A stretch of DNA of 24,000 nucleotides from Microvirga sp. (GCA_031546825.1 JAVBJU010000002.1:124453-148452); one strand, 5' to 3'; positions 5,817-22,912 are shown, counted from the first letter of the stretch. The notes: generated by a model from the letters alone, not told the origin. Program-made: numbers and translations.

Positions 5817-5823
5817 AAAACCT

Positions 5824-6726: not shown

Positions 6727-6918
6727 GGCGGTATCTCCCTATAAAGCGCGCGCGCCACAACCATCGATAACCCGCTGGAAACGCAGTCCCCTCCCAATTT
6801 CTTCCCATATCCCTTTGTTTTTAAACATTTATTTGATCGACAAATCCAGTGATCCAAACTCTGAATTTCTCTTGGGACGACAGGCTCTTTATACCTCAGT
6901 CTAGTAATTAGTTCGCCC

Positions 6919-6947
6919 GTATTAGCAACGCTTAATACTGAGTATAC
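6919..6947. promoter_or_regulatory. Candidate LysR-type operator: overlapping inverted repeats GTATTA-N8-TAATAC and ATACT-G-AGTAT
   Basis: The sequence reads gtattagcaacgcttaatactgagtatac. It has a perfect 6-bp-arm inverted repeat (6919-6938), and a second small palindrome (6935-6945) shares one arm. It lies 35-60 nt upstream of the CitMHS start, in the divergent LysR/CitMHS intergenic region. Confidence 0.35.
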
Positions 6948-6979
6948 AGCGCCAATCAAAATAATTCAAGGAGCATTTC

Positions 6980-8293
6980 ATGCTAGCAACGCTGGGTATC
7001 TGTACTATCTTTATAGTATTATTAGCAATTCTTACAAATAGAGCATCTCCTCTTGTTGCTCTTATTGCCGTTCCTATTATCGCAGCGCTGATAGGAGGCT
7101 TTGGCTTCGCAACGAGCGGCTTCATCATCAAAGGGATTACATCCATCGCGCCGATTGCTGCGATGTTCGTCTTCGCCATTATCTTCTTCGGCGTGATGAC
7201 AGATGCTGGAATGCTCGACCCCATCATCGACGGCATTCTCAAAAGCGTCGGCGCCAAGCCCGCGCGCATTACCATGGGCACGGCACTGCTGTCGCTTTTG
7301 ATTCACCTCGATGGTTCGGGGGCTATCTGCTTCCTGATTACCGTTCCTGCCATGCTCCCTCTTTATGATCGTCTTGGCATGGATCGGCGTATTCTCGCCT
7401 GCATGGCCGCTCTTCCCGCAGGCGTCAATTTCCTGCCATGGACAGGCCCGACAATTCGTTCGTCGGCAGCCCTCCATATCCCAACCATTGATATTTTCAA
7501 ACCTATCCTGATCCCGCAACTCGTCGGCTTGGTCTTTGTGTTTGTCATCGCTTATTGGCTTGGCAAAAAGGAAGAGCGCCGCCTGGGCCTCAACAATTCC
7601 CGGATGAGCGCTGAACAGCTCCAGTCGCTGGTTGCGACCCGCACATTAACCGACGAAGAGAAAAAAATACGTCGCCCGAAAATGTTCGTGCCAAACCTGC
7701 TCATGACGGCGGTCGTGATGGTGATCATGATCGGTGGCTGGGTTGACCCAACTGTGATGTTCATGGTCGGCACCGTTTTGGCCCTGATGATGAACTATCC
7801 CGATGTTAAGATGCAGAAGGCTCGTGTTGATGCCCATGCCAAGGCGGCGCTCATGATGGCAAGCATTCTCCTTGCGGCTGGCTGCTTCACCGGCATCATG
7901 ACCAATACGGGTATGCTCACAGCCATTGCGAAAGCCGCCGTGTCGGTGGTTCCGCCAGACATGGCACAGCATATACCATTTGTGCTTGGTCTGGTCTCCA
8001 TGCCGCTCAGCCTGCTGTTTGACCCGGATTCGTTCTATCTCGGCGTGATGCCGGTTATCGCCGAAGTCTACAAATCGTTTGGTGGCGATCCGATCCACAT
8101 TGCTCAGGCGGCGATCTTCGGCCTGCACACCACCGGCTTCCCGGTCAGCCCGCTCACGCCCGCAACCTTCCTTCTCGTAGGCCTGTCCGGTATCGAGCTT
8201 AGTGCTCATCAGCGCTTCAGCTTCAAATACCTTTATGCCGCCACCGTCGTTATGACCTTCACTGCGGTCATCATCGGCGTCATCCCGCTATAA
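6980..8293 (+). CDS. CitMHS family (citrate-divalent cation:H+) symporter
   Basis: This is a 437-aa polytopic membrane protein: GVMTDAGMLDPIIDGILK...LLIHLDGSGA...PWTGPT...FDPDSFYLGVMPV, typical of TC 2.A.11. An AAGGAG RBS lies 6 nt before the ATG at 6980. Confidence 0.8.
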   Translation: MLATLGICTIFIVLLAILTNRASPLVALIAVPIIAALIGGFGFATSGFIIKGITSIAPIAAMFVFAIIFFGVMTDAGMLDPIIDGILKSVGAKPARITMGTALLSLLIHLDGSGAICFLITVPAMLPLYDRLGMDRRILACMAALPAGVNFLPWTGPTIRSSAALHIPTIDIFKPILIPQLVGLVFVFVIAYWLGKKEERRLGLNNSRMSAEQLQSLVATRTLTDEEKKIRRPKMFVPNLLMTAVVMVIMIGGWVDPTVMFMVGTVLALMMNYPDVKMQKARVDAHAKAALMMASILLAAGCFTGIMTNTGMLTAIAKAAVSVVPPDMAQHIPFVLGLVSMPLSLLFDPDSFYLGVMPVIAEVYKSFGGDPIHIAQAAIFGLHTTGFPVSPLTPATFLLVGLSGIELSAHQRFSFKYLYAATVVMTFTAVIIGVIPL

Positions 8294-8307
8294 TCCGAGG
8301 TGTTACC

Positions 8308-9645
8308 ATGAAAACAATCCGTATCGGATCGGCTGCTGGCTATTCCGGCGACCGCATAGAACCCGCGGTGGAGCTCGCTGAAAAAGGCAATTTGAACTAT
8401 CTCGTGTTCGAATGCCTTGCCGAGCGCACCATCGCCATCGCCCAGCAGGCCAAGATGAATGACCCGACCAAGGGCTACGACGCCCTTCTGGTCGAGCGCA
8501 TGCAGGCTGTGCTCAAGCTGTGCCATGAGCGCGGCATCAAGATCATCACCAATATGGGCGCAGCCAACCCGCAGGCTGGTGCGCAAAAGGTGGTTGAGGT
8601 TGCCCGTTCACTCGGCATCAAGAACCTCAAGGTCGCAGCTGTTTCCGGCGATGACGTGCTCGCGGAACTCAAGGCAGGCAGCTATACCATCGAAGAAACC
8701 GGGAAGCCGGTTAAAGAGATGGAAAACAGCCTCGTCTCGGCCAATGCCTATATGGGCGCTGAACCGCTTGTTCAGGCACTGAAAGACGGCGCTGATGTCA
8801 TCATCACCGGGCGCGTTGCCGACCCGTCGCTGTTCCTTGCGCCGCAGATCCATGAATTTGGCTGGGCTCTCGACGATTGGGAGCGTCTGGGTCGCGGCAC
8901 CGTGACCGGGCATCTGCTCGAATGCGCGGGCCAAATCACCGGCGGCTACTACGCCGATCCCGGCAAGAAGGACATTCCTGGCCTTGCCCGCCTCGGCTTC
9001 CCGCTGGCGGAGATCGACCAAGATGGCCACGTCGTCATCACCAAGGTTGATGGCTCCGGCGGCATGGTGGCGGAATCCACCTGCAAAGAGCAGATGCTCT
9101 ATGAGTTGCACGACCCCGTGGCCTACCTCACCCCGGACGTGACCGCCGATTTCTCCGGCGTCACGTTCCATCAGGACGGCAAAGACCGTGTCCGCGTTCA
9201 AGGTGCTAAGGGGCGCGCACGCCCTGACACACTGAAGGTTTCGGTTGGCTTTGTTGATAGCTATGTCGGTGAAGGGCAAATGTCCTATGCCGGTCCCAAT
9301 GCGCTGGCGCGGGCCAAACTTGCCCTCGACATCGTGCGCGAACGGTTGAAGCTCACCGGTGTGCAGACCACCGAATTGCGTTTCGATCTCATCGGCGTCA
9401 ATTCGATTCACGGCGACAAGCTGTCAGAAGGCTCTGAGCCCTATGAAGTGCGCATCCGTGTCACCGGTCGCACCGAGAACATGAAGGAAGCGGTGCGCAT
9501 CGGCAATGAAGTCGAGACGCTCTACACCAACGGCCCGGCGGGCGGCGGCGGCGCATTCAAATCAGCGCGCCAGATCGTTGCCATGGGCTCGGCTTATCTA
9601 CCGCGCGCGAAAGCCGTGCCGGTTGTCGAATATATGGAGGCCTGA
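8308..9645 (+). CDS. AtuA-like protein (DUF1446, acyclic terpene utilisation AtuA family N-terminal part), biochemical function unknown
   Basis: MKTIRIGSAAGYSGDRIEPAVELAEKGNLNYLVFECLAERTIA...ITNMGAANP...VITGRVADPSLFLAP...GHLLECAGQITGGYYADP, as I remember the DUF1446 signature. A GAGG RBS is present. The gene follows the transporter after 14 nt. Confidence 0.75.
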   Translation: MKTIRIGSAAGYSGDRIEPAVELAEKGNLNYLVFECLAERTIAIAQQAKMNDPTKGYDALLVERMQAVLKLCHERGIKIITNMGAANPQAGAQKVVEVARSLGIKNLKVAAVSGDDVLAELKAGSYTIEETGKPVKEMENSLVSANAYMGAEPLVQALKDGADVIITGRVADPSLFLAPQIHEFGWALDDWERLGRGTVTGHLLECAGQITGGYYADPGKKDIPGLARLGFPLAEIDQDGHVVITKVDGSGGMVAESTCKEQMLYELHDPVAYLTPDVTADFSGVTFHQDGKDRVRVQGAKGRARPDTLKVSVGFVDSYVGEGQMSYAGPNALARAKLALDIVRERLKLTGVQTTELRFDLIGVNSIHGDKLSEGSEPYEVRIRVTGRTENMKEAVRIGNEVETLYTNGPAGGGGAFKSARQIVAMGSAYLPRAKAVPVVEYMEA

Positions 9646-9646
9646 G

Positions 9647-9958
9647 ATGAAGCTTTACGATATTGCCCATTCACGCACGGGCGACAAGGGCAACACCTCG
9701 AACATCTCCCTTATCGCTTACGACATGAAGCACTATGCGCTCCTCGAGAAATACGTCACCGCCGACAAGGTCAAGGAGCATTTCTCCGACACCGTGCAGG
9801 GCAAAGTGGTGCGTAAGGAGATCCCGAGCATCGGCGCGCTGAACTTCATCATGTACGAAGCGCTCGGCGGCGGTGTGACCCGCTCACTGGCCCTTGACGC
9901 CCACGGCAAATGCCTTGGGGCTGGGCTCTTGAGTTTGGAAATACCAGACACACTTTAA
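9647..9958 (+). CDS. AtuA-like ferredoxin-fold protein (DUF4387), the small partner of DUF1446
   Basis: MKLYDIAHSRTGDKGNTSNISLIAYD...GALNFIMYEALGGGVTRSL. I use the ATG at 9647, directly after the upstream TGA (9643-9645), with GGAGG 6 nt upstream. The track's longer ORF from 9506 would overlap the previous gene by 140 nt. Confidence 0.75.
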   Translation: MKLYDIAHSRTGDKGNTSNISLIAYDMKHYALLEKYVTADKVKEHFSDTVQGKVVRKEIPSIGALNFIMYEALGGGVTRSLALDAHGKCLGAGLLSLEIPDTL

Positions 9959-10025
9959 AAGAATTCGGCGCAGTTCCCCCACCGCGCCGAACCCCATGGG
10001 TTCCATAACAAGAAGCCGTGGGTAT

Positions 10026-10066
10026 AAAACTCCGGAAGGTTACCCCCAACCTTCCGGAGTTTTTTT
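10026..10066. terminator. Bidirectional rho-independent terminator between convergent operons
   Basis: aaaactccggaagg-ttaccccca-accttccggagttttttt forms a perfect GC-rich stem flanked by an A-run on one side and a T-run on the other. It lies between the stop at 9958 (+) and the stop at 10069 (-). Two further hairpins precede it (ttcggcgc...gcgccgaa at 9964-9991 and gaaccc-cat-gggttc at about 9989-10003). Confidence 0.8.
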
Positions 10067-10068
10067 AT

Positions 10069-10614
10069 TCAGGGGCGAACGAATACATCTTTTGCCCGTT
10101 GGGAGCGGCGCAGATACGCGCTTATCATCAGGGCGGGAATAACCATCCATACAATCGTCAATGAGATTGAGCGGTCCGCTGCGAAAAACTCTGGCGCCAA
10201 CGACGCCATGATCGTGGGACCACAGATATTCCATATCACCATTGCCAGTAATAATGGGACACAATATTTGCGGAAGCGGCGGCTTTTATCGATAAATCTC
10301 AGTATCAACCAGGCCACCGCAGCGGCCAGCACAAGCACTCCGATGCTATACACAAATTCCACGACCATAACGATGCGAAAGCGAAGCGCGATACTGGTGT
10401 CCAAGAGCAAGTCTGGGAGACCCGAAGCAAGATCGAGTAAGGCAGAACCTCGGATCCAGGCCGTCATCAGGCCAGCCCCCACAATCATGCAGAGATAAAC
10501 CCCGATACCAATAAGCCAGACATTCATCCGTTGCGGCTGCAGCCTCGACTGGAAGGAAGACAATTCCTCCAAAAACGCATCGTTGCTGTCTGTTGGTGCT
10601 TCATCGGCTTTCAT
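10069..10614 (-). CDS. Hypothetical integral membrane protein (about 4 TM segments)
   Basis: The ATG at 10614 has a GGGGGAG RBS. The gene lies 20 nt downstream of the ymdB-like stop. Hydrophobic stretches include VWLIGIGVYLCMIVGAGLMTAWI, VVEFVYSIGVLVLAAAVAWLIL, VPLLLAMVIWNICGPTIMA and LTIVWMVIPALMISAYL. I recognise no family. Confidence 0.6.
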   Translation of the reverse strand: MKADEAPTDSNDAFLEELSSFQSRLQPQRMNVWLIGIGVYLCMIVGAGLMTAWIRGSALLDLASGLPDLLLDTSIALRFRIVMVVEFVYSIGVLVLAAAVAWLILRFIDKSRRFRKYCVPLLLAMVIWNICGPTIMASLAPEFFAADRSISLTIVWMVIPALMISAYLRRSQRAKDVFVRP

Positions 10615-12055: not shown

Positions 12056-12105
12056 AAAAAAACCGCGCGAGAGAGATGTTTCACCGAAACACCTGTCTCG
12101 CGCGG
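12056..12105 (-). terminator. Rho-independent terminator at the 3' end of the 6S RNA candidate, immediately upstream of the 5-FCL start
   Basis: On the minus strand, ccgcgcgaga...tctcgcgcgg forms perfect 10-bp arms (plus-strand 12063-12072 / 12096-12105) with an inner gtttc/gaaac stem. Seven U follow (plus-strand A-run 12056-12062). Confidence 0.7.
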
Positions 12106-12260
12106 TGCGGGCCACGAAAGCCGTTGGAGTGCTGATCCCGGGTACCTACATAGTAGGTGGGCGCCGTATATCCAGGTCCACGGACCTGGTCAGGGACAGC
12201 TCCCTAGGGGATCGTAAGGCCCCGGGGAAATGTCTCCTGACGAGCCCCACAGCACCGCAT
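12100..12260 (-). ncRNA. ssrS: 6S RNA (SsrS) candidate
   Basis: Position: a non-coding 290-nt gap directly upstream of, and co-oriented with, ygfA-like 5-FCL.
Fold done by eye on the minus strand:
- the 5' GCGGUGC (12252-12258) pairs perfectly with the 3' GCACCGC (12103-12109) as a closing stem;
- further paired segments are CGU/ACG, GGAG/CUCC and CCCGGG/CCCGGG, separated by internal loops;
- an apical hairpin CCAGGUCC-GU-GGACCUGG forms near 12166-12183.
A promoter-like element and a terminator flank the candidate. The ends are approximate. Confidence 0.7.
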
Positions 12261-12264
12261 CCCT

Positions 12265-12293
12265 AATGTAATGGCCGCCTCTTGCTTTTGCCA
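12265..12293 (-). promoter_or_regulatory. Candidate sigma-70-type promoter of the 6S RNA
   Basis: On the minus strand, TGGCAA (or CTGGCA) is followed by a 17-18-nt spacer and then TACATT. The -10 element ends 6-7 nt before the first base of the predicted closing stem (about 12258). Confidence 0.35.
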
Positions 12294-12332
12294 GCCCTTA
12301 GAGCAGGAAATATGCCCTTTCAGGCAAATCAT

Positions 12333-12614
12333 TCAGATCAACCCGGCATCGCGAATTTTTTGCTCTATTTCCTGTTCACTGAGGAGGTTTTTCAGGCCTA
12401 TCACCTTGGTCTTGGCCCCGACCTTGAAATTGCTGACGAGGGAATCGGTGCAGAACACCACATCATAATTCGAGGCAACGCTCTTTGCCTCTCCCACCGA
12501 CATATGGCCGACATCGGCTGGCAGGTTCAGTTTCTTGAAGACGTTGGATATCTTCATCTTGATAATCTGTGATGTGCCCATTCCGTTGCCGCACGCGGCG
12601 ATGACCTTCAGCAT
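12333..12614 (-). CDS. ulaB: PTS ascorbate-family EIIB component
   Basis: MLKVIAACGNGMGTSQIIKMKISNVFKKL... contains the phosphorylatable Cys in the AACGNGMGTS motif, as in E. coli UlaB/SgaB. I use the ATG at 12614 with a GGGAGAG RBS. The track ORF's 18-aa N-terminal extension is rejected. Confidence 0.88.
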   Translation of the reverse strand: MLKVIAACGNGMGTSQIIKMKISNVFKKLNLPADVGHMSVGEAKSVASNYDVVFCTDSLVSNFKVGAKTKVIGLKNLLSEQEIEQKIRDAGLI

Positions 12615-12661
12615 TACTCTCTCCCTAAACGGAAATTGCCCGGTCTTTGGCCCGGGAGGAA

Positions 12662-12685
12662 CCGGCACCCCTCATGGGGTGCCGG
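12662..12685 (-). other. Intercistronic stem-loop between ulaA and ulaB
   Basis: ccggcacccc-tcat-ggggtgccgg is a perfect 10-bp GC-rich stem with a 4-nt loop. It starts 15 nt after the ulaA stop. No U-run follows on the transcribed strand, so it is not a canonical terminator. Confidence 0.6.
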
Positions 12686-12700
12686 ATCGTAAGGCGGACT

Positions 12701-14149
12701 TCAGATTTCCCCCACGGCCGTCTCGAAATAGCCCTTCCTGTTTCTGCGATGTTGCAGTTGCGGAATGATGAGCATACCGATGACGAGGACACCGATGGCA
12801 AGCGCTCCGAAGTTCTGGATCAGCCATCCATAGACCGGCCACAGCGTATCCCAGTCGAAGTTGCCATGCCAACCACCGAATTCGGCAAGTCCGAAGGCAC
12901 CGGCGGCGAACGCCCCGCCGAACACCTGGATGAGGCCGGAGCAGAAGCACAGGATGACCAGCGCCCGGAACCCGCCGCGCCGGTTGGCAAACACGCCGAT
13001 TGTCGCGTTGTCGAAGAACACCGGCACAAAACCCGGAATAATCAGAACCGGCGACTTGAAGGCGATCAGCAGCATCACGGCAACGAACTGCCCGATGGCA
13101 CCGAACAGGAAGCCGAACAGGATCGAGTTGCCACCGGCTTTATCAAAACCATAAGTCGCGGCGCAGTCGATGGCGGGCAAGGCACCCTTGAGCAACCTGT
13201 CGGAAATCCCTTTGAAGGATTCGGTCATTTCGGAGACGAACATACGCACGCCAGCCGCGAGAATGTAGAGGTACACCGCGAATTGCAGGGTGGTTTTCAG
13301 CACGTATTTAAGGAACCATTCGCCCGAGCCCGCCGCGTAGAACTTCTTGGCCGCGAGATATTCCGGCCCGAGAATGCAGAGGATTGCGCCGAAAAACACC
13401 AGCATCAGAGTGGAGGTGGCGACAACATTGTCGTTGAAAATCTGGAGGAAGCCCGGCAGCTTCAGGTTCTCAACCGACTTCTCCCTGTTGCCGATCACCG
13501 GCGACAGCTTGTAGGTCAGCCAGACACCGAACATCTGCTGGTGGCCAACGGCAAAGCCAGAATTGTCCGTAAGCTCTTGTGTCGCCTCGACGGTGAGGTT
13601 TGAGAACACCGCCCAATAAGTGCCGACCAGAATACCGCAGATCACCACGCCCCAGGCATTGTTCTGGAGAATCGGTACACCGATGAAGATGATCCACAAG
13701 CCGGTCGTGGCCTGCTGCAACATGATGTGACCGGTGATGAAGAGCGTGCGGATCTTGGTATAATCACGCAAAGCCACCAGAATGATGTTCCAGATGAAGG
13801 CAACAAGCAGCGCCATCATGATCAATGAGGTGGTCCAGCCCGCCTTGGCGAAGGCTGAGTTCACCGCATTGAAACCGAAATACGGATCAATAACCGCGGC
13901 ATGGAGACCGAAGCGCTCGTTGAGCCCGGTCAGGATCGGACGGAAGGAACTGACCAGCCCCCCCGAACCGACCTGCAGGATAAAGAAGCCAACAGCGGCC
14001 TTGATGAAGCCGGAAAAGCAATCATACCAGGGCTTGCGCATCAGCATGTAGCCGATGAGCACGAGCAGGCCGATGAAGATGGCTGGCTCCGCCATGATAT
14101 TGACGAAGACGCTCTGCCAGATGCTGATGATAAAGTTAAAACTATCCAT
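12701..14149 (-). CDS. ulaA: PTS ascorbate-specific EIIC permease
   Basis: This is a 482-aa polytopic protein. GHIMLQQATTG, FAVGHQQMFGVWLTYKLSP, ENLKLPGFLQIFNDN, LPAIDCAATYGF and IIPGFVPVFFDNATIGVFAN closely track my recollection of E. coli UlaA/SgaT. Confidence 0.9.
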   Translation of the reverse strand: MDSFNFIISIWQSVFVNIMAEPAIFIGLLVLIGYMLMRKPWYDCFSGFIKAAVGFFILQVGSGGLVSSFRPILTGLNERFGLHAAVIDPYFGFNAVNSAFAKAGWTTSLIMMALLVAFIWNIILVALRDYTKIRTLFITGHIMLQQATTGLWIIFIGVPILQNNAWGVVICGILVGTYWAVFSNLTVEATQELTDNSGFAVGHQQMFGVWLTYKLSPVIGNREKSVENLKLPGFLQIFNDNVVATSTLMLVFFGAILCILGPEYLAAKKFYAAGSGEWFLKYVLKTTLQFAVYLYILAAGVRMFVSEMTESFKGISDRLLKGALPAIDCAATYGFDKAGGNSILFGFLFGAIGQFVAVMLLIAFKSPVLIIPGFVPVFFDNATIGVFANRRGGFRALVILCFCSGLIQVFGGAFAAGAFGLAEFGGWHGNFDWDTLWPVYGWLIQNFGALAIGVLVIGMLIIPQLQHRRNRKGYFETAVGEI

Positions 14150-14209
14150 CGTGAATCACCCTTGCTGAATACCGGGCGGCCCCATGGGGGCAGTTTCCGG
14201 TGCGGGCGG

Positions 14210-14241
14210 AAAAAAGCCGGAGCCCCTTGCGAGGCACCGGC
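14210..14241 (-). terminator. Intrinsic terminator/attenuator between ulaG and ulaA
   Basis: The minus strand reads GCCGGUGCCUC-GCAA-GGGGCUCCGGC followed by UUUUUU. This gives 5 + 5 bp with one U-U mismatch and one G-U pair, capped by a GNRA (GCAA) tetraloop. It begins 6 nt after the ulaG stop and lies 60 nt before the ulaA ATG. Confidence 0.65.
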
Positions 14242-14247
14242 GCTGGA

Positions 14248-15312
14248 TCAGAGGAATGACGGGAACGGCAAGTCCGTCTCGCCGGTAAAGGCGTCTTCGA
14301 AGCCGCGCGGGTAATGGTACTCCCGCTTGTCCTTGTCATTCGGATAGACGAATTTACCGCCAACCTGCCAGATATACGGCTTAAAACCGTATTGCAGGCG
14401 ATCCTTACGCATTTCCCAAAGCGCAGAGATTTCCATCGGATCCGCCTGGAAGTTTGACCAGATGTCATGATGGAATGGCATTACCACTTTGCAATTCAAC
14501 GCTTCCGCCATGCGCAGAATATCCGACGAGGTCATCTTGTCGGTAATCCCGCGCGGGTTTTCGCCGAAGGAGCCGAGCGCAACGTCAATCTCATAATCAT
14601 TGCCGTGCTTGGCGTAGTGATTGGAGTAATGAGAATCGCCCGAGTGGTAGAGGGAGCCGCCCGGCGTGCGGAACAGATAGTTCACCGCGCGCGCGTTCAT
14701 GTCCTTGGGCATCGCATCCTTGCACTTCACGTCGGCGGGCTGGGTGATGAGCACGGTGCGGTCGAAGGATTCGAGCACGATAATCTCGATATCCTTGATC
14801 TTCACCACATCACCCGGCTTCACCACCTTGCAGCGGTCTGCCGGAACGCCCCATTTCTTCCACAGATCCACACAGCTCTGCGGCCCGATGAACGGCACAG
14901 AAGCATCACAGTTTTTCAGAACTGCGGCGGCAACATTCACGTCGATATGATCGTTATGATCGTGCGTCGACATCACAGCGTCGATCTTTTTGATCGCAAA
15001 CGGGTCAAGCACGAAGGGCGACAGGCGCAGATTGGGCTGCAATTGCTTGCCACCGCTCATGCGCGCCATCTGGTGATGGGGAATCATCCATGGATTCTTG
15101 CGGCTTCGCTTACCAGTGCCGCACCACAGGTCGATGCAGATATTGGCGTCGCCCTGGGTCTTGATCCACAACCCGGTGCAGCCGAGCCACCACATGGCAA
15201 AGGTGCCAGGCTGGACGACCTCGGCTTCGATTTCTTCGTTAAGCCAGGTTCCCCATTGGGGAAATGTGCTCAAAACCCACGATTCTTTGGTGATTTCGTC
15301 AATGGTACTCAT
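14248..15312 (-). CDS. ulaG: L-ascorbate-6-phosphate lactonase
   Basis: [29 protein letters not shown]...[12 protein letters not shown]...[16 protein letters not shown]...[14 protein letters not shown]...[12 protein letters not shown]...[11 protein letters not shown]...[11 protein letters not shown] is near-colinear with E. coli UlaG as I recall it. The start is the ATG at 15312 with a GGGAGAG RBS. Confidence 0.92.
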
Positions 15313-15429
15313 GGCTCTCCCGCTCTCTTGTTCCCGGCGGAACTTCAACTGATGCGATGCGCCGCCCCTCTCAGGTGAATTCAGAACACCCTTCCGAGGC
15401 TTTAAAAAAGACTAGACCAAAAATTCATT

Positions 15430-15445
15430 TTGTCGATCATTATTT
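15430..15445. promoter_or_regulatory. Copy 1 of an exact 16-nt repeat, TTGTCGATCATTATTT (minus strand AAATAATGATCGACAA), upstream of ulaG
   Basis: It is identical to 16045-16060. On the minus strand it contains a -10-like AATAAT followed by ATGATCGACAA. It lies in the 192-nt gap between the ulaC stop and the ulaG start. Confidence 0.5.
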
Positions 15446-15454
15446 AGTATGTTT

Positions 15455-15490
15455 TGAACGATTAATGAAAAATACGAACATTTATCGAAC
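15455..15490. promoter_or_regulatory. Cluster of TGAAC/GAAC half-sites (candidate DeoR/UlaR operator) upstream of ulaG
   Basis: The sequence is TGAACGATtaatgaaaaataCGAACAtttatCGAACA. It includes one of three TGAACGAT octamers in the ula control regions and a GAAC-N7-GAAC direct repeat. Confidence 0.45.
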
Positions 15491-15504
15491 ACCCACGACC
15501 TCCG

Positions 15505-15960
15505 TCACAGACACTTGTCCATCAGCGCAACCGCGTCATCCACCGTTCGGCAGGCGCGTATCCGGTCGAAATTGTCAGGGTCTTCAAACAAGGTGACGAT
15601 CTGCACGATGCCGGTTTCGGTGTGCTCCTGCGCGCTCTTCGCCGCCAGCGTAATAAGAATATCTATTGGGTCGTTATCCGGATCACCAAAATTGACCGGC
15701 GTTTTCAGTGTAACCAGCGCAAATCCGGTTTGTTTGACACCCTCTTCCGGACGCCCATGCGGCATGGCCAGCCCCGGCGCAATCAGAAAATAGGGGCCAT
15801 ATTTCTCCACGCCATCGAGAATCGCCTGATAATAACGCGGCTCCGTCACATCGGCCGCGACCAGCAAATCGGCGCCAAGCTTGACGGCTTCCTGCCAAGT
15901 GGTCGCCTCGGCCTGCAACAGTATGGAATTATTGGCCTTCAAGGATTCCTGTAATTTCAT
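15505..15960 (-). CDS. ulaC: PTS ascorbate-family EIIA component
   Basis: [86 protein letters not shown]... closely tracks E. coli UlaC, including the phospho-His context [12 protein letters not shown] use the ATG at 15960, the sixth codon of the track ORF. Confidence 0.9.
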
Positions 15961-16044
15961 GACCCGCCTATCCATCTTCCAAACCCGCCCAACGGCCGCA
16001 GATAGCGCTGCGACCTTTGATAAAATCTATCATAAAGCCCAAGC

Positions 16045-16060
16045 TTGTCGATCATTATTT
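16045..16060. promoter_or_regulatory. Copy 2 of the exact 16-nt repeat TTGTCGATCATTATTT, in the ulaC/ulaD divergent region; probable ulaC promoter core
   Basis: It is identical to 15430-15445. On the minus strand, TTGAAA (plus 16077-16082), a 17-nt spacer and AATAAT (plus 16054-16059) form a good sigma-70-like promoter about 90 nt upstream of the ulaC ATG. Confidence 0.5.
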
Positions 16061-16111
16061 TGTGCGAATGGAACTATTTCAAAGTTTTCCGCCGAGGCCC
16101 ACTTGCCAAAA

Positions 16112-16168
16112 TGAACGATACATGTTCAAATATCTTCCGTTGGGCAAAATATATGTTCATATCGTTCA
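16112..16168. promoter_or_regulatory. Candidate DeoR/UlaR operators upstream of ulaD
   Basis: There is an inverted repeat, TGAAC-gatacat-GTTCA (16112-16128), and a direct repeat, GTTCA-tatc-GTTCA (16155-16168). They bracket a possible promoter, TTCAAA-N18-ATATAT (16125-16154). The TGAACGAT octamer occurs on both strands. Confidence 0.45.
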
Positions 16169-16241
16169 TATTTTCAGGCATCTTGACCGTCACGTTCTCT
16201 GATACCGGCCCATTACCGGAATGATCACTGAGGAACCCGTC

Positions 16242-16898
16242 ATGTCTCTTCCCCTGCTGCAACTGGCTCTCGACAACAAATCCCTCGCTGAGGCCTTTCA
16301 ATCTACCCGCTTGCTCGCCCCGGAAATTGATATCATCGAAGTCGGCACTATCCTGGCCTGCGCCGATGGTATGCAGGCCGTGCGCTGCATGAAGGCCGCA
16401 TATCCTGACCGTATCGTTCTCGCTGACGTTAAGGCGGCTGATGCTGGCAGTATTCTCTCCAATATGTGCTTCGACAATGGCGCGGACTGGATGACCGTGA
16501 TCTGCTGTGCGCCCATCGCAACCGTTGAATCGGCGATGAAGGAAGCACAGAAGCGCGGCGGAAAATACGATGTCCAGATCGAGCTGACCGGCTCCTGGAC
16601 CTGGGAGGAAGCCAAAAACTGGCACAAGGTCGGCATTCGCCAGGTTGTCTACCACCGTGGCCGCGATGCCCAGGCCGCCGGGCAATCCTGGGCCAAGGAA
16701 GATATTGACACCATTAGCCGGCTCGCCGAAATGGGCTTTCACCCGTCCATTACCGGTGGTCTCGTCATTGATGACCTACAGCTCTTCAAGGGCTTGCCGG
16801 TGAAGTCGTTCATCTCCGGTCGCTCCATGCGCGAGGCCCCCGATCCGGCGGCTGAAGCACGCGCTTTCAAGGCTCGCATCGCCGAATTGTGGGGCTGA
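16242..16898 (+). CDS. ulaD: 3-keto-L-gulonate-6-phosphate decarboxylase
   Basis: MSLPLLQLALDN...IDIIEVGTIL...IVLADVKAADAG...DWMTVICCA...VQIELTGSWTWEEA...VVYHRGRDAQAAG...FISGRSMREA...FKARIAELWG is near-colinear with E. coli UlaD/SgbH. The start is the ATG at 16242 with a GAGGAA RBS. Confidence 0.92.
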   Translation: MSLPLLQLALDNKSLAEAFQSTRLLAPEIDIIEVGTILACADGMQAVRCMKAAYPDRIVLADVKAADAGSILSNMCFDNGADWMTVICCAPIATVESAMKEAQKRGGKYDVQIELTGSWTWEEAKNWHKVGIRQVVYHRGRDAQAAGQSWAKEDIDTISRLAEMGFHPSITGGLVIDDLQLFKGLPVKSFISGRSMREAPDPAAEARAFKARIAELWG

Positions 16899-16902
16899 CC
16901 CG

Positions 16903-17784
16903 ATGCCGATGCCCGCCCTGCCCTGCCTCGGAATCTATGAAAAGGCGCTGCCCGCGTCCATGAGTTGGCGGGAGCGGCTGCTGGCCGCCCACAAAGCCGG
17001 ATACGATTACGTCGAGATGTCCATCGACGAAACCGATACCCGGCTCGCCCGGCTGCAATGGACGGGCGGGGAGCGGCGGGAACTGCGGGATATCATCAAT
17101 GATACCCGCATGCCCATTCGCTCGATCTGCCTATCCGGCCACCGCCGGTTTCCCTTCGGCAGCGAAGACCCATCCGTGCGGGGGCGCGCCCATGATATCA
17201 TGGCACGCGCAGTGGATTTTGCGGCAGATATGGGTATCCGCACCATCCAGCTTGCCGGATACGATGTCTATTACGAACCCTCCACCGCCGACAGCCTGAA
17301 GCGTTTCGAAGAGGGCCTAACCTGGGCCGCCGGGATTGCCGCGCGCTCCCAAGTGATGCTCGGCATGGAGATCATGGATACGGAACTGATGAGTTCCATC
17401 ACCCGTTGGCTGGCCTATGCCGAGAAAATCCGCAGCCCGTGGTTTCAGGTTTATCCCGATATCGGCAACCTGTCGGCGTGGAATAACGATGTTTCCGCCG
17501 AACTCATCAAGGGTGATGGACGCATCACCGCCATCCACCTCAAGGACACCAAGAAAGTCGCCCCCGGCTTCCCCGGACAGTTCCGTGACCTTCTCTTCGG
17601 CGAAGGTTCGGTGGATTTCGTTGCCGCCTTCCGAACCCTCAAAGCCATGGATTACCGCGGCGCATTTCTCGTGGAGATGTGGACGGACAAGGCCGAAGAC
17701 CCGGTTTTCGAGATTACCCGCGCGCGGCAATGGATCATCGCACGGATGCAGGAGGGCGGGCTGATCGGCCCGCAGAACCCATGA
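16903..17784 (+). CDS. ulaE: L-ribulose-5-phosphate 3-epimerase
   Basis: [10 protein letters not shown]...[18 protein letters not shown]...[16 protein letters not shown]...[14 protein letters not shown]...GMEIMDT.LM.SI...[18 protein letters not shown]...FGEGSVDF matches UlaE/SgbU. The start is 4 nt after the ulaD stop. Confidence 0.9.
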
Positions 17785-18470
17785 AAAACATCAGACAGGA
17801 AGTGTTCGAGGCCAATATTTCCTTGCCGAAGATGGGGCTGGTGCTCTTCACCTGGGGCAATGCCTCGGCCATCGACCGGGCACGCGGCCTCGTTTTCATC
17901 AAGCCGTCGGGCGTACCCTATGACGCCATGACCGCGAAAGATATGGTGGTGACGGATCTGGATGGGCGCGTGGTTGAGGGCAGACTGAAGCCATCTTCGG
18001 ACCTACCGACGCATCTCGTATTGTACAGAGCTTTTCCCGAAATCGGCGGTGTGGTCCACACCCATTCGAGCCATGCCACCGCCTGGGCGCAAGCTGGCGA
18101 GAGCATTCCCATGGAAGGCACGACGCAGGCCGATTATTTCTATGGTGGCGTGCCCTGCACCCGCGCCATGACCGATGCCGAGATCACGGGTGCCTATGAA
18201 GCTGAGACCGGCAACGTCATTGTCGAAACCTTTCGCACAGGCGGCTTCAGCCCGTTGGAGCGCCCCGCGGTGCTGGTGCGCAATCACGGCCCCTTCACCT
18301 GGGGCAAGGATGTGCACGAAGCCGTTCATAACGCCGCTGTGCTGGAAGAAGTGGCCCGGATCGGGATATTGTCACGCCTTGCCGGGCGTCCGCAGGAAGC
18401 GCAAAAGGCGCTTCTCGACAAGCACTTCCTGCGCAAGCACGGTGCCAATGCCTATTACGGACAGAGCTAA
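17781..18470 (+). CDS. ulaF: L-ribulose-5-phosphate 4-epimerase
   Basis: [33 protein letters not shown]...[11 protein letters not shown]...[34 protein letters not shown]...[20 protein letters not shown]...[15 protein letters not shown] is the AraD/UlaF signature. The ATG at 17781 overlaps the ulaE stop (ATGA). Confidence 0.9.
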
Positions 18471-18504
18471 CCCTAATTTTTTGCACAACGCCAGCGAGGG
18501 CACC

Positions 18505-18765
18505 ATGCAAACCAGAATTGTGGAAGTCGTTAATCCCACCGGCCTGCATACCCGGCCCGGCAATATGTTCGTCAAAAAGGCCAAAGAATTCACCTCCGTC
18601 GTCACCGTCGCCAAAGGCGACAAAGAAGTGAATGCCAAAAGCCTGCTGACCCTGATGAAAGCGGGCATCTGTCAGGGCGACAAAATCACCATCAAGGCAG
18701 AGGGCAGCGACGAGGCGGAAGCCGTTATCGCGCTGGCAGACCTGGTTGCATCCCTGACAGAGTGA
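18505..18765 (+). CDS. ptsH: HPr phosphocarrier protein
   Basis: The protein is 86 aa: MQTRIVEVVNPTGLHTRPGNMFVKKAKEF...EVNAKSLLTLMKAG...AEGSDEAEAV. The active-site His is at position 15 and a Ser is at position 46, both by direct count. A GCGAGGG RBS lies before the ATG at 18505. Confidence 0.9.
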   Translation: MQTRIVEVVNPTGLHTRPGNMFVKKAKEFTSVVTVAKGDKEVNAKSLLTLMKAGICQGDKITIKAEGSDEAEAVIALADLVASLTE

Positions 18766-18770
18766 GAATC

Positions 18771-20519
18771 ATGCAGCGTTTTTCGGGCATCGCCGCTTCG
18801 CCAGGCATCGCCATCGGTCAGGCTTTCCTTTACGTCTCGCCAAAGCTCGACTTTCCCATGGGCACAATTGCGGAAGCGCAGCGGGACGATGAAATCGCCC
18901 TGTGGCGGCGCGGGCGCGATAAAGCCCAACACAGGCTCCAGGCGCTGGTCGATAAGTTCACCGCGTCCGGTAACGACGATATGGCGGGTGTCTTCGAAGG
19001 CCATATTGAAATACTGACCGACGAAGGCATTGAAGAAGCGGTCTGCGATCTTATCCGCAATGGCAGTTTCGCACTCAATGCCAGCCGCGATGTCATGGAA
19101 GCGCAGCGTGCGGAGTTTCTCGCACTCGACGACGAATACATGCGCCAGCGCGCCGATGATATCGGCGATATTGCCCGCCAGTTGCTCTACGCCATTGCGG
19201 GCATCGCATTCATTGACCTCACGCGCCTCCCCATGGGCACGGTGATCATCGCCAATGATCTCGTGCCGTCCGACACCGCACAGATCGACCCCAAAGCTGT
19301 GGTTGGCATCATCACCGAAACCGGCGGGCGCACCAGCCACACCGCCATCATGGCGCGCACCTTTGAAATCCCCGCTGTGGTCGGCTGCTCCGGCATCATG
19401 GCGCAACTCTCCGACGGCTGTGCACTCGTGGTGGATGGCGGCGAAGGGAACATCGTGCGCGACGCCGATGAAAAAACCCTGTCCGACTACCGCGCAGCGC
19501 AGGCACGTGCCGCCGAAGAGCGCCAGCAAATGCTCGCGCTCGCGCCATTGCCCCCCACCACACGTGACGGCATCACTGTGGCGCTTGCCGCCAATATCGG
19601 CACTCCCGCCGATGCCGAGGCCGCGCTGCCCTGGAACCCCGATGGCGTCGGCCTTTACCGCACCGAATGCCGGTTCATGGATCGTGCGGGGACACCCAGC
19701 GAAGAAGAGCAATACCGCGCCTTTTCAGCGGTCGCCAAAGCGATGCCCGGGAAAGACATCATCATCCGCACACTCGATGTGGGCGGCGACAAACCTATTG
19801 CCGCCATCGCCTTCCCCCACGAAGACAATCCCTTCCTTGGCTGGCGGGGCCTGCGCATGTGCCTGTGGCCGGAGGATGGCCACCAGGAGATCCTGCGCAC
19901 CCAGATACGGGCCGCATTACGCGCTGCCGTTCACGGCCACATCATGCTGATGTATCCGATGATATCGTCGTTCGAAGAGGTCGAAGCGGTCAATGAGCTG
20001 TTCGCTGACGTGAAGCGAGAACTCACCGCCGCTGCAATCCCCTTCGGCAATGTGAAAACCGGCATCATGATAGAGACGCCGGGTGCGGCGCTCATCGCCG
20101 ACAAATTGGCTGAAGTGGTTGATTTCTTCTCAATCGGCTCCAATGATCTGACGCAGTATACGCTGGCAGCCGATCGCGGTAATAAGCAGATCGCGCGCTG
20201 CTACCAGCCGTTTCACCCCGCCGTTTTCCGCCTGGTCGCCTCGGTGATAGATGCCGGCAAAAGCCATAATGTGATGGTCGGCATGTGCGGCGAACTCGCA
20301 GGCATGGAGGAAGCCGCCCTGCCACTGCTCGGGCTTGGGCTCGATGAATTCAGCATGGGCGCACAATCCCTGCCCCGCATCAAACGGATCATCCGCGCCG
20401 CAACCATGGACGATGCCAGAATGGCGGCACGGCAGGTTCTTGATGCCCGCACGGCGGAAGAAGCCTTCCGTCTCGCCCATGAAATCATGCAGACCGTATT
20501 AACCCGGGGAGCGCTCTGA
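18771..20519 (+). CDS. ptsI: Phosphoenolpyruvate-protein phosphotransferase (PTS Enzyme I), sugar type without an N-terminal GAF domain
   Basis: MQRFSGIAASPGIAIGQAFLY...TETGGRTSHTAIMARTFEIPAVVG (phospho-His)...GLYRTE.RFMDR...IRTLDVGGDK...NPFLGWRG.R...SIGSNDLTQYTLAADR...GMCGELAG. The ATG at 18771 lies 5 nt after the ptsH stop. The length is about 582 aa, and the SPGIA motif falls within the first 15 residues. Confidence 0.92.
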   Translation: MQRFSGIAASPGIAIGQAFLYVSPKLDFPMGTIAEAQRDDEIALWRRGRDKAQHRLQALVDKFTASGNDDMAGVFEGHIEILTDEGIEEAVCDLIRNGSFALNASRDVMEAQRAEFLALDDEYMRQRADDIGDIARQLLYAIAGIAFIDLTRLPMGTVIIANDLVPSDTAQIDPKAVVGIITETGGRTSHTAIMARTFEIPAVVGCSGIMAQLSDGCALVVDGGEGNIVRDADEKTLSDYRAAQARAAEERQQMLALAPLPPTTRDGITVALAANIGTPADAEAALPWNPDGVGLYRTECRFMDRAGTPSEEEQYRAFSAVAKAMPGKDIIIRTLDVGGDKPIAAIAFPHEDNPFLGWRGLRMCLWPEDGHQEILRTQIRAALRAAVHGHIMLMYPMISSFEEVEAVNELFADVKRELTAAAIPFGNVKTGIMIETPGAALIADKLAEVVDFFSIGSNDLTQYTLAADRGNKQIARCYQPFHPAVFRLVASVIDAGKSHNVMVGMCGELAGMEEAALPLLGLGLDEFSMGAQSLPRIKRIIRAATMDDARMAARQVLDARTAEEAFRLAHEIMQTVLTRGAL

Positions 20520-20550
20520 CCCCTGTTCGACCCCATGAAACTGGATATCT

Positions 20551-20564
20551 TGAACATATCGAAC
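20551..20564. promoter_or_regulatory. GAAC direct repeat (TGAACatatcGAAC) upstream of the DeoR regulator gene; candidate autoregulatory operator
   Basis: It shares the GAAC-AT-rich spacer-GAAC architecture of 15476-15490 and 16155-16168 (reverse complement TGAACgatatGAAC). It lies in the 219-nt gap between ptsI and the regulator gene. Confidence 0.35.
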
Positions 20565-20738
20565 TTTGTCCCATCTGTTCCCCTTGAAGTGCAGCATGGC
20601 AACGGGTTAGGTTCGCGATCGTCATGATGCCGTGAAAACGGGCGGATTGCAGGATAAGACCGCTTGCGCAATCGGGAATGAGTACGGCATCAGCCGGTAC
20701 CTCTCCTTATATTCGTTTGGGCGGCGAAGGAGCGAAGC

Positions 20739-21599
20739 GTGCCTCACAAGACCCCCGCCATCGCAGCGGAAACCGGAAAGACAAGAAAGACCCGCAAGAA
20801 TGTGCCCGGTCGCGCCACCTCGTTGCGGCGGCAGCGGCTGCTTGCACAAATCGGACGTTCCGAAGAAATCCGCGTCACGGAACTGGCAGAGGCGTTTCAA
20901 GTGTCCGAGCTGACGATCCGCCGCGATCTCGACCAGATGGAGCAGGAAGGCCTGATCGACCGCTTCCACGGCGGCGCGCGCCTGCCCAGCACCATGCGCC
21001 CCGAAATTCTATTCGATGACAAGCCGCTTCTGCGTGCCCATGAAAAGGAAGCCATTGGCCGGGCTGCGGCGGAACTCATCAATGACGGCGAAACCGTGCT
21101 GGTCAATGGTGGCACCACCACCCTCGCCGTGCTGCGACATCTGCGCAGCAAAAGCATCTGCGTCGTCACCAACAACGCTGCCGCACCGCTGGAAATGGGC
21201 GAGTCCCGAATCGAGCTGATCCTGCTTGGCGGGCAATACCGGGCAAAATCCCGTTCGCTGTTTGGCGAGTTGGCCGCTCTCACCCTGTCGCAGGTCAATG
21301 GCGGTGTTTGCATTCTCGGCACCAACGGCATCAGCTCCCGCACCGGTACCACAACCTCGGTCTATTCCGAAGGGGCCATCAATCGCCTGATGTCCGAACG
21401 CTGTGCGGGCAAGGTGATTGTCGTTGCCGACGGCACCAAGATCGGCGCCGTCTCGTCGTTTTCGAGCGTTCCGCTGAAGCGCGTCGATATCCTGATTACC
21501 GACTCCTCGGCAGACCCGGACGAACTCGCCGCCATCCGCGCAGCGGGGGTTGAGGTTATCGTGTGCCCCATAAGCAATAGCAACGCATACGCAGGATAG
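20739..21599 (+). CDS. ulaR: DeoR/GlpR family transcriptional repressor, probable ascorbate-operon regulator (UlaR-like)
   Basis: A DeoR HTH (RRQRLLAQIGRSEEIRVTELAEAFQVSELTIRRDLDQMEQEGLIDRFHGGA) precedes a DeoR C-terminal sugar-phosphate sensor domain (VLVNGGTTT...VVTNN...ILGTNGIS...VVADGTKIG). The start is the GTG at 20739, with a GAAGGAG RBS 6 nt upstream. The functional link to ula rests on position only. Confidence 0.8.
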   Translation: MPHKTPAIAAETGKTRKTRKNVPGRATSLRRQRLLAQIGRSEEIRVTELAEAFQVSELTIRRDLDQMEQEGLIDRFHGGARLPSTMRPEILFDDKPLLRAHEKEAIGRAAAELINDGETVLVNGGTTTLAVLRHLRSKSICVVTNNAAAPLEMGESRIELILLGGQYRAKSRSLFGELAALTLSQVNGGVCILGTNGISSRTGTTTSVYSEGAINRLMSERCAGKVIVVADGTKIGAVSSFSSVPLKRVDILITDSSADPDELAAIRAAGVEVIVCPISNSNAYAG

Positions 21600-21606
21600 C
21601 GTATTT

Positions 21607-22224
21607 TCAATCGCTCCTCTCGACCATCGCGATGATCGTTTTGAAGAGCTCGTCCTTCGCCTGCTGAGCGGTCAGCTCGTTGACCGCGGCGGCATACGAC
21701 AAAGCCTCCGCCGCACCGAGCATCGCCCATAGAGCCGATAAGGCGATGCTCCCACCCTTGGAAAAAGGTGAAAGCACGCCCCGACACTTCTCAATAAATG
21801 CTGTCTGATATTCGCGTTTAATTTTTTCCAGTTCCGGCGAACCGGTCAATGCCGCGATAACTCCGGGGATCTCGCGGCCCTGTTTAAGCACACAATCAAT
21901 ATAGCACGATGAAATCAACATGGCCCTCGCCGACAAGGTCGTGTCGCTCGCCTCGAGTGCAGATTCGATGACCGCATTCTGGCGTGCATCAAACTCCTGA
22001 TAGAGCACCGCGAATAGTCTGGTTCGCGTGCCAAAATGGTCGTAAACGACGGGCTTTGTTACGCCCGATTGCTCGGCAAGGGACCCAAGGGTTAGCGCTT
22101 CCGTGCCTTGTTCCCCAACTAGCCTCCACGCAACGTCCAACAGTTGGCGATAGCGCTCTGCTCTCGACATTCGGCGGCGCGATGACGCGCTGGCAACCTG
22201 CGTTTTTGGTTCGGTGCTTGACAT
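21607..22224 (-). CDS. TetR/AcrR family transcriptional regulator
   Basis: MSSTEPKT...RAERYRQLLDVAWRLVGEQGTEALTLGSLAEQSGVTKPVVYDHFGTR is a TetR N-terminal HTH. I use the ATG at 22224, because the track ORF's 35-aa extension runs through the operator/promoter region. The gene is divergent from the oxidoreductase gene. Confidence 0.85.
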   Translation of the reverse strand: MSSTEPKTQVASASSRRRMSRAERYRQLLDVAWRLVGEQGTEALTLGSLAEQSGVTKPVVYDHFGTRTRLFAVLYQEFDARQNAVIESALEASDTTLSARAMLISSCYIDCVLKQGREIPGVIAALTGSPELEKIKREYQTAFIEKCRGVLSPFSKGGSIALSALWAMLGAAEALSYAAAVNELTAQQAKDELFKTIIAMVERSD

Positions 22225-22228
22225 ATTA

Positions 22229-22259
22229 ATATACCAAAAGTAACTTACTATTAGTATAT
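22229..22259. promoter_or_regulatory. 31-bp near-perfect palindrome, candidate TetR operator
   Basis: In atataccaaaagtaacttactattagtatat, 13 of 15 arm positions are complementary around a central C. It starts 5 nt from the tetR start codon and ends 44 nt upstream of the oxidoreductase ATG. Confidence 0.6.
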
Positions 22260-22302
22260 AAATACGCCATTCTCTCATTTCTTGCAAGCAGGAGGCTTCC
22301 GC

Positions 22303-22911
22303 ATGCACGCGCTCATTGTCCTCGCACATCCCCTCGCCTCATCACTCAGCCACAGTATTGTCACCCAGATTGCCGAAGGCATAATCCAGTCAAACCCCGA
22401 TAACTCTGTCGAAATAGCGGACATTACCAAGGAAGGGTTCGATCCTCGATTCAGCATTGCTGATATCGCTGCCTTTCACAAAGAGGCTCCGCCGCCCGCC
22501 GATGTTATCGCCGAACAGGCGCGCATTGATCGCGCCGATGCACTCGTGCTGGTCTTTCCTGTTTATTGGTGGTCGATGCCAGCAGTGCTTAAAGGCTGGA
22601 TTGATCGCGTGTTCAGCAATGGTTGGGCTTACGATGAAGCCCCGGACACCAAACCGGTGAAGAAGCTTGGTCGTCTCCCCGTACATCTGGTTGCGATCGG
22701 TGCGGCACATAGAGAAACGTACTTGCGGCACAGCTTTGCTGAAGCCATGAAGACGCAAATCGAGCACGGCATTTTTGATTATTGTGGCGCCCCCATCTTG
22801 AGCTCCGATCTATTACTCCTCCCGGAATTGCAAGAACCAAACGCATATCAGAATGTCGCCCACGTCATTGGCCGCAAAGTATTTACCACGCAGAGGGCCG
22901 AAGCAGTATGA
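22303..22911 (+). CDS. Flavodoxin-like-fold NAD(P)H dehydrogenase (quinone), NQO/KefF/MdaB-like
   Basis: MHALIVLAHPLASSLSHSI...ADALVLVFPVYWWSMPAVLKGWIDRVFSNGWAY is typical of Flavodoxin_2 family proteins. The ATG at 22303 has GGAGG 8 nt upstream. Confidence 0.75.
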   Translation: MHALIVLAHPLASSLSHSIVTQIAEGIIQSNPDNSVEIADITKEGFDPRFSIADIAAFHKEAPPPADVIAEQARIDRADALVLVFPVYWWSMPAVLKGWIDRVFSNGWAYDEAPDTKPVKKLGRLPVHLVAIGAAHRETYLRHSFAEAMKTQIEHGIFDYCGAPILSSDLLLLPELQEPNAYQNVAHVIGRKVFTTQRAEAV

Positions 22912-22912
22912 A

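Follow-up and report, generated by a model that had tools for sequence, protein, structure and literature searches.

Does an alphaproteobacterium of the Methylobacteriaceae carry a complete and self-sufficient sugar-type phosphotransferase system (PTS), and if so, how was it obtained? The question is raised by a locus in a stretch of 24,000 nucleotides from Microvirga sp. (GCA_031546825.1, JAVBJU010000002.1:124453-148452), which was analysed as a whole and is called the window in the following. In this locus the genes of an L-ascorbate (ula) PTS and catabolic pathway are found together with ptsH and ptsI, which encode the general PTS proteins HPr and Enzyme I (EI). Most alpha-proteobacteria are without EIIB and EIIC proteins (PMC13104625; PMC2937029). 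Our analysis indicates that the locus is very probably a self-contained L-ascorbate PTS and catabolic cassette, which was acquired horizontally and lies between zapA and the gene of the 6S RNA in a member of the Methylobacteriaceae close to Microvirga.

A six-frame listing of open reading frames together with NCBIfam profile searches identified ten intact genes at 12333-21599, which make up a 9.3-kb ula/pts/deoR cassette. The matches extended over nearly the whole length of the curated NCBIfam profiles, and ten such neighbours, all matched at full length and with E-values as low as 1e-198, cannot be put down to chance. Four genes are on the minus strand, namely ulaB (12333-12614), encoding the EIIB of the L-ascorbate family, ulaA (12701-14149), encoding an EIIC permease of the L-ascorbate (SgaT/UlaA) family of 482 aa, ulaG (14248-15312), encoding L-ascorbate-6-phosphate lactonase, and ulaC (15505-15975), encoding an ascorbate-specific EIIA of 156 aa. 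The other six are on the plus strand: ulaD (16221-16898; 3-keto-L-gulonate-6-phosphate decarboxylase), ulaE (16903-17784; L-xylulose-5-P/L-ribulose-5-P 3-epimerase), ulaF (17781-18470; L-ribulose-5-phosphate 4-epimerase), whose ATG overlaps the ulaE stop codon (ATGA), ptsH (18505-18765; HPr of 86 aa), ptsI (18771-20519; EI of 582 aa) and a gene of a DeoR-family regulator (20739-21599). An earlier note on 12333-20519, made from the sequence, had placed all five PTS functions in one locus. Indeed, EI, HPr, EIIA, EIIB and EIIC were all found, and every motif quoted in it is present in the translations. The named genes are intact where they had been placed, except that the start of ptsI is at 18771 according to the public-database call and not at 18762, and the DeoR-family gene beyond that range is also a member of the cassette. 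The most likely start codons of ulaB and ulaG are at 12614 and 15312, giving proteins of 93 and 354 aa, respectively.

The general PTS proteins of the cassette are of the sugar type. The EI matched TIGR01417 with 569 bits (cut-off 341.7), and its translation contains the active-site His in GGRTSHTAIMAR and the catalytic Cys in GMCGELAG. It has no N-terminal GAF domain, because it was aligned end to end with E. coli EI (PDB 2HWG; 497 bits, residues 4-573 against 2-569), an alignment which includes GGRTSHT and GMCGELAG. The model of PtsP (EI-Ntr, NF008283) gave 380.5 bits, below its cut-off of 583, and the match began at profile position 169, past the GAF region; the claim that this protein has no GAF domain and is not EI-Ntr was thus borne out. 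It is not an ortholog of the enterobacterial PtsI either (NF008382, 582.5 bits against 824). The HPr matched TIGR01003 with 87.4 bits (cut-off 47.9), whereas the NPr model reached only 38.5 against 119, and searches of the PDB gave 74 bits for a Thermoanaerobacter-type HPr, 69 for E. coli HPr and 27.6 for NPr. His15 of HPr is located in NPTGLHTRPG and Ser46 in NAKSLL.

The transport components and the catabolic enzymes point to L-ascorbate as the substrate. UlaA matched the curated model NF006919 (398.4 bits, cut-off 380) and Pfam PF03611, and was aligned with E. coli UlaA (PDB 4RP8) with 348 bits over residues 8-462, at about 42% identity. The vitamin-C contacts of E. coli UlaA are T86, Y87, H135, I136, Q139, H194, Q195, D314, I358, F362 and M410, together with S59 and R288 (PMC6048161). 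Ten of these 13 positions are identical in the Microvirga protein, while T86 is Pro, I358 is Val and M410 is Asn. The Pro at T86 is also present in the ascorbate transporter of Pasteurella multocida, and the T86P mutant of E. coli grows on ascorbate (PMC6048161). UlaC matched the NF007694 equivalog with 254.8 bits (cut-off 187) and contains the phosphorylatable His motif in its translation. UlaB carries its active-site Cys in MLKVIAACGNGMGTS, i.e., in AACGNGMG (CGNGMGTS), and is 75-80% identical to the EIIB proteins of other proteobacterial cassettes; its score with the ascorbate IIB profile NF007586, 51 bits, is under the cut-off of 138. As for the enzymes, UlaG matched the equivalog NF008688 with 658 bits, about twice the cut-off of 306, over profile positions 1-355 of 355, and is 73-79% identical across related cassettes. 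UlaE gave 414.5 bits with NF009689 (cut-off 200) and UlaF 362.7 bits with the UlaF/AraD subfamily model NF006047 (cut-off 257). UlaD exceeded the subfamily model NF009832 (300 against 250) and narrowly missed the E. coli-type equivalog (281.9 against 294). Each of the four enzymes therefore lies above a curated cut-off, and the complete route from L-ascorbate-6-P to D-xylulose-5-P proposed in the earlier note was recovered. Taking the contact residues, the full-length UlaG and the four-step route together, the substrate with the best support is L-ascorbate.

By homology with the Ula system of E. coli, a working scheme can be drawn for the cassette. Phosphoenolpyruvate would phosphorylate the cassette's own EI at the His of GGRTSHTAIMAR, and the phosphoryl group would pass from EI to His15 of HPr, to the His of UlaC and then to the Cys of UlaB (AACGNGMG). 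L-ascorbate would be imported by UlaA and released as L-ascorbate-6-P, which would be converted to D-xylulose-5-P by the lactonase UlaG, the decarboxylase UlaD, the 3-epimerase UlaE and the 4-epimerase UlaF, and the product would enter the pentose phosphate pathway. The neighbouring DeoR-family repressor probably controls ulaDEF-ptsHI through operator-like repeats in two intergenic regions. Under such control the general PTS proteins would be inducible and specific to this pathway. If EI and HPr are themselves subject to it, a basal level of expression would be required for induction, which would then reinforce itself.

The surroundings of the cassette identify the host and show where the block was inserted. 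The flanks consist of core chromosomal genes, i.e., ruvA, ruvC, yebC, YmdB, 5-formyl-THF cyclo-ligase (5-FCL), zapA and a DUF4164 protein, as assigned by Pfam. YmdB shares 90% identity with the protein of Microvirga sp. W0021, followed by named matches from Microvirga, Enterovirga and Methylobacterium, which agrees with the alphaproteobacterial background assumed at the outset; Microvirga belongs to the Methylobacteriaceae in Hyphomicrobiales (formerly Rhizobiales) of the Alphaproteobacteria. The site is empty in five relatives, Microvirga sp. W0021 (L083), M. flavescens (L085) and three metagenomic ones (including L086/87 and L088/89). In these five the gene order is tkt, DUF4164, zapA, [6S], 5-FCL, YmdB, no genes intervene between zapA and 6S, and the distance from zapA to 5-FCL is about 230-290 bp. 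The edges were located by blastn against L083 and L085, with homology extending to window position 12273 and resuming at about 22950, and a finer alignment extended the conserved 6S upstream region to about 12310. The whole lineage-specific insertion thus covers 12311-22912 (about 10.6 kb), from the 6S RNA promoter region to the zapA stop codon, and contains the cassette and a tetR/quinone oxidoreductase gene pair. Because this block sits between the zapA and 6S genes that are adjacent in five relatives, it was judged to be acquired. To judge from these empty sites, the insertion is foreign to the host lineage and was probably acquired horizontally.

Relatives of the cassette were found in very few genomes. 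The proteins most similar to UlaA (70-81% identity) all come from Proteobacteria or metagenomes, and the following ones, at 61% or less, from Clostridia, Negativicutes and Spirochaetes. Among 185,579 GTDB species representatives, the UlaA clade is present in only six Proteobacteria, with a best match of 79% and none from Methylobacteriaceae. The six carriers are Uliginosibacterium gangwonense, Paludibacterium yongneupense, two Telmatospirillum metagenome-assembled genomes (MAGs), "Rhizobiales bacterium UBA697" and a soil MAG. This scarcity and the literature on alpha-proteobacteria support the earlier view that the locus is unusual for such a host. In Uliginosibacterium, Paludibacterium and Telmatospirillum, whose contigs are long enough, the order ulaD-E-F-ptsH-ptsI is kept, and deoR adjoins ptsI in these copies, Telmatospirillum excepted. 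A JGI soil contig (sample 3300056388) has the full order ulaD-E-F-ptsH-ptsI-deoR. The CTSoil_114 Proteobacteria MAG (L003), the closest genomic relative of the cassette, has the order ulaC-E-F-ptsH-ptsI, and tblastn found no ulaD match between its ulaC and ulaE; this copy may be without the decarboxylase, or the enzyme may be encoded elsewhere. Since the same block occurs in unrelated proteobacterial hosts, the linkage of ptsHI to ula travels with the cassette and was not assembled in this host. The EI sequences agree with this distribution: among 5.8 billion proteins the nearest EI is 64% identical, the next ones, from Spirochaetes and Thermoanaerobacterales, reach at most 49%, and all EI matches at 50-64% whose gene context was examined (L001, L003, L005, L006 and the JGI contig) are linked to ula genes. 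In a neighbour-joining tree, which has no bootstrap values and is used descriptively, the EIs of the proteobacterial cassettes form one clade, and the window EI is the most divergent of its sub-clade. Linkage of ptsHI to ula is also seen in many gut and rumen Treponema and Spirochaetaceae MAGs (L045-L072) and in three MAGs of Clostridia/Negativicutes (L013, L035, L078). Their EIs fall in separate clades with 36-42% identity to the window EI, and because of this distance the linkage may have arisen more than once. Our literature searches returned nothing relevant on PTS in Microvirga or on an ascorbate PTS in Alphaproteobacteria, and the ula-ptsHI-deoR cassettes of other Proteobacteria are apparently undiscussed in the literature searched. 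The cassette is thus rare in Alphaproteobacteria, its parts are canonical, and public genomes of other Proteobacteria already contain it. Two further features were seen in single copies. The JGI contig has a gene of a LamB-family porin between ulaB and ulaC, which the window copy lacks; the substrate might cross the outer membrane through this porin. In Uliginosibacterium gangwonense (L001, 1-5220), tail genes of a P2-like phage and an integrase fragment of 96 aa are located about 5 kb from the cassette, which hints that the cassette region is also variable or island-like in that genome.

The arrangement of the genes also suggests how the cassette might be controlled. The gap is 34 nt between ulaF and ptsH and 5 nt between ptsH and ptsI, and ulaE and ulaF overlap, so ptsH and ptsI probably share a transcript with ulaDEF. 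The DeoR-family regulator gave about 173-175 bits with the GlpR and AgaR models, both under their cut-offs. It is 59-61% identical in three related loci (L001, L003 and L005), in which it adjoins ptsI; the regulator match of Telmatospirillum (L006) has 47% identity and lies about 1.8 kb past ptsI on the opposite strand. On either side of ulaC there is one copy of a direct repeat of 34 nt, with copy 1 at 15430-15463 upstream of ulaG and copy 2 at 16045-16078 upstream of ulaC, and the first 16 nt are the same in both copies. Copy 2 overlaps the best minus-strand promoter-like match (TTGAAA-17-AATAAT, 16082..16054, 10 of 12 matches), whose -10-like box is inside the repeat. In the divergent intergenic region of ulaC and ulaD (16112-16168), two inverted half-site pairs of the TGAACG/TGTTCA type are found at 16112-16128 and 16154-16168, and a third pair is located at 15475-15491. 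A similar pair adjoins ulaC in Uliginosibacterium (L001, position 20356) and in Telmatospirillum (L007, position 1079); the exact 16-nt core of the repeat had no match in the homologous cassettes, only looser half-site pairs being found there. The repeats and half-sites are candidates for duplicated promoter/operator modules of the DeoR-family repressor. The other proteobacterial copies all have ulaC and ulaD in the same direction, and for this reason ulaC seems to have been moved upstream of ulaG in the window, carrying a duplicate of the ulaG promoter segment.

Several observations weigh against a horizontally acquired L-ascorbate cassette of this kind. The position of M410 in UlaA, a residue in van der Waals contact with vitamin C, is occupied by Asn; this change is non-conservative and invariant across the clade. 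The identity of UlaA to the characterised protein of E. coli is only about 42%, which makes a closely related substrate conceivable. The UlaR model NF010034 gave 100 bits against 244, so that the regulator is not an UlaR ortholog. Promoter-like matches (8 against 5.6 in shuffled sequence) and terminator-like ones (9 against 12) show no excess in the region, and the operon structure is therefore read from gene spacing alone. No integrase or transposase domain, insertion sequence element, tRNA or flanking direct repeats were matched when a mobility signature was sought, and there is no compositional anomaly, with a third-position GC content (GC3) of 0.72 in the island and 0.69 in core genes. A search of PLSDB plasmids by tblastn with UlaA gave nothing above 60% identity and no Rhizobiales among the organisms listed, so a plasmid vehicle is unsupported. 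If the ascorbate label had been carried over from distant E. coli homologs, the true substrate would be a related sugar acid or lactone, in line with the distance of UlaA, the Asn at M410, the scores of UlaB and of the E. coli-type UlaD equivalog under their cut-offs, the regulator differing from UlaR, and the report that active-site substitutions of UlaG appear below 80% identity (PMC3219644). We regard this as improbable, because the ten identical contacts, a T86P change known from a proven ascorbate transporter, the scores of UlaG, UlaC and UlaA above ascorbate-specific curated cut-offs and the full four-enzyme route specific for ascorbate-6-P in one locus all speak for L-ascorbate. A foreign piece joined to a Methylobacteriaceae contig by assembly or binning would account for the lack of close relatives of the block in any Methylobacteriaceae of the searched databases. 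Such an artefact is hardly credible, as the host-type synteny returns on both sides at exactly the points that adjoin each other in five relatives, a chimera would have to be joined precisely twice at a single site, the GC3 of the island matches that of the host core genes, and in the database record the protein belongs to a 233,941-bp contig.

Among the known systems closest to the cassette of the window is the L-ascorbate PTS of the Ula (Sga) regulon of E. coli, ulaG/ulaABCDEF/ulaR (TC 4.A.7). Both have the same eight functions, i.e., EIIC, EIIB, EIIA, four enzymes and a DeoR-family regulator, and their active-site residues and most vitamin-C contacts are alike. The E. coli system depends on unlinked general ptsHI, whereas in the window ptsH-ptsI are embedded after ulaF. 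The gene order is also unlike that of E. coli, with ulaC-ulaG-ulaA-ulaB divergent from ulaDEF-ptsHI-deoR, the regulator is GlpR/AgaR-like instead of UlaR, and the host is an alphaproteobacterium. The cassettes of Uliginosibacterium, Paludibacterium, Telmatospirillum and the soil MAG have the same gene set (L003 without an ulaD match), with identities of 70-79% for UlaA, 73-79% for UlaG and 57-64% for EI, but their hosts are from other orders or classes and their ulaC is co-directional with ulaD, not upstream of ulaG. The loci of Treponema and of Clostridia/Negativicutes likewise combine EIIC, EIIB and EIIA of the L-ascorbate family with ptsH-ptsI, and their HPr proteins are 51-56% identical to ours with NPTGLHTRPG in common; they differ in their distant EIs and in their gene orders. 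In the order of the window host, an operon of Mesorhizobium loti combines an HPr-EI fusion with a PTS transporter of the glucitol class, and in both M. loti and Bradyrhizobium japonicum ptsH-ptsI share operons with genes of dihydroxyacetone kinase (PMC2405797). These modules, likened to the window from the literature alone, show pathway-linked EI/HPr beside the regulatory PTS-Ntr. They differ in that M. loti has a glucitol EII family with EI and HPr fused and the dihydroxyacetone kinase operons are without EII, while the window has an ascorbate EII with separate EI and HPr. For Rhizobiales, EI/HPr dedicated to one pathway are therefore rare but precedented. The statement of the earlier note that well-studied Rhizobiales have only a regulatory PTS holds for Brucella, S. 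meliloti and A. tumefaciens, which are without PTS permeases (PMC2937029), but it was too broad given the exceptions of M. loti and B. japonicum (PMC2405797).

These exceptions are relevant to the role of the cassette EI and HPr, which might be general PTS proteins serving other EIIs, or the host might already have a sugar PTS with the ula operon merely lying beside ptsHI. PTS permeases or additional ptsHI copies do occur in some Hyphomicrobiales, such as M. loti and B. japonicum (PMC2405797), and Paludibacterium, of the Chromobacteriaceae, keeps the cassette ptsHI while the related Chromobacterium violaceum has several other EI-containing proteins (PMC2405797). We consider a general role unlikely. 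In every complete proteobacterial copy, from four host genera, ptsH-ptsI directly follow ulaF, the cassette EIs form a clade of their own, the spacing of 34 nt and 5 nt points to a common transcript with ula, and according to reviews most alpha-proteobacteria have no EIIB/EIIC (PMC13104625). A further possibility, raised in the earlier note, is that the acquired HPr feeds into the HprK/PTS-Ntr network of the host, through phosphorylation of Ser46 or cross-phosphorylation of EIIA-Ntr. The residue does stand in the KS context described there, HprK, which phosphorylates a serine of NPr, is common among alpha-proteobacteria (PMC2937029), and inducible cross-phosphorylation of PtsN by FruB of the fructose PTS is known in Pseudomonas putida (PMC13104625), which makes crosstalk a legitimate idea. 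As evidence for targeting by HprK, however, Ser46 did not hold up: all the aligned HPr sequences of the cassettes have it, as does the HPr of E. coli, and hprK is absent from most proteobacteria, E. coli included (PMC13104625). Its surroundings, KSLLTLMKAG, resemble KSLFKLQTLG of E. coli and are unlike KSIMGIMSLG of the Thermoanaerobacter type, with S-L-L-T in place of the Gram-positive-type S-I-M-G. Nothing in the window speaks for or against such crosstalk, which we likewise hold to be rather unlikely.

The conceptual gain is modest, since the components are all canonical and standard annotation models recognise them correctly; the architectural twist is ptsHI embedded in the ula cassette. 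The locus nevertheless offers a natural example of a complete PTS, general proteins included, transplanted into a lineage which according to the literature is normally without PTS permeases. It also suggests that some soil Methylobacteriaceae can use L-ascorbate, a major plant metabolite. It provides a tractable system for asking whether an imported sugar PTS can work alone in an alphaproteobacterium and whether it talks to the resident PTS-Ntr. On a speculative note, the cassette might be a portable PTS starter kit which has spread as a unit among Alpha- and Betaproteobacteria of soil, wetland and peat, and whose own EI and HPr, under pathway-specific control, would enable ascorbate catabolism where the PTS is purely regulatory. 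The induced HPr~P and EI~P could then perturb PTS-Ntr/HprK of the host, as FruB does in Pseudomonas putida, but we hold this scenario as a whole to be doubtful.

The remaining part of the insertion, 21607-22911, encodes a tetR-family regulator (probably 21607-22224, minus strand; Pfam PF00440) and a flavodoxin-like NAD(P)H quinone oxidoreductase (probably 22303-22911, plus strand; Pfam PF02525). The GC3 of this pair is 0.59 as against 0.72 for the ula genes, and it had no match in any related cassette locus; it may represent a separate acquisition at the same site. At the other edge, the 6S RNA (ssrS) gene is located at 12106-12258 on the minus strand (Rfam, 69 bits), 74 nt downstream of the ulaB stop codon and on the same strand, and read-through from the ula operon into ssrS is conceivable. 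The idea that the insertion severed the 6S gene from its own promoter was rejected, as the upstream region is conserved to about position -50 in the finer alignment. The 6S promoter probably survived, because a conserved promoter-like stretch, GGGCTGG ... TTACATT, is kept upstream of the gene. Directly after the 6S gene there is a terminator-like inverted repeat at 12062-12106, with 21-nt arms of 90% complementarity and a 3-nt loop followed by seven T on the minus strand, which ends about 14 nt before the 5-FCL start codon. A second lineage-specific block is present at 5154-10614, between NAGPA/yebC and YmdB, where the five relatives have zero or one gene; it encodes a DUF1287 protein, a LysR regulator, a CitMHS transporter, AtuA, an AtuA-ferredoxin-like protein and a DUF2569 membrane protein.

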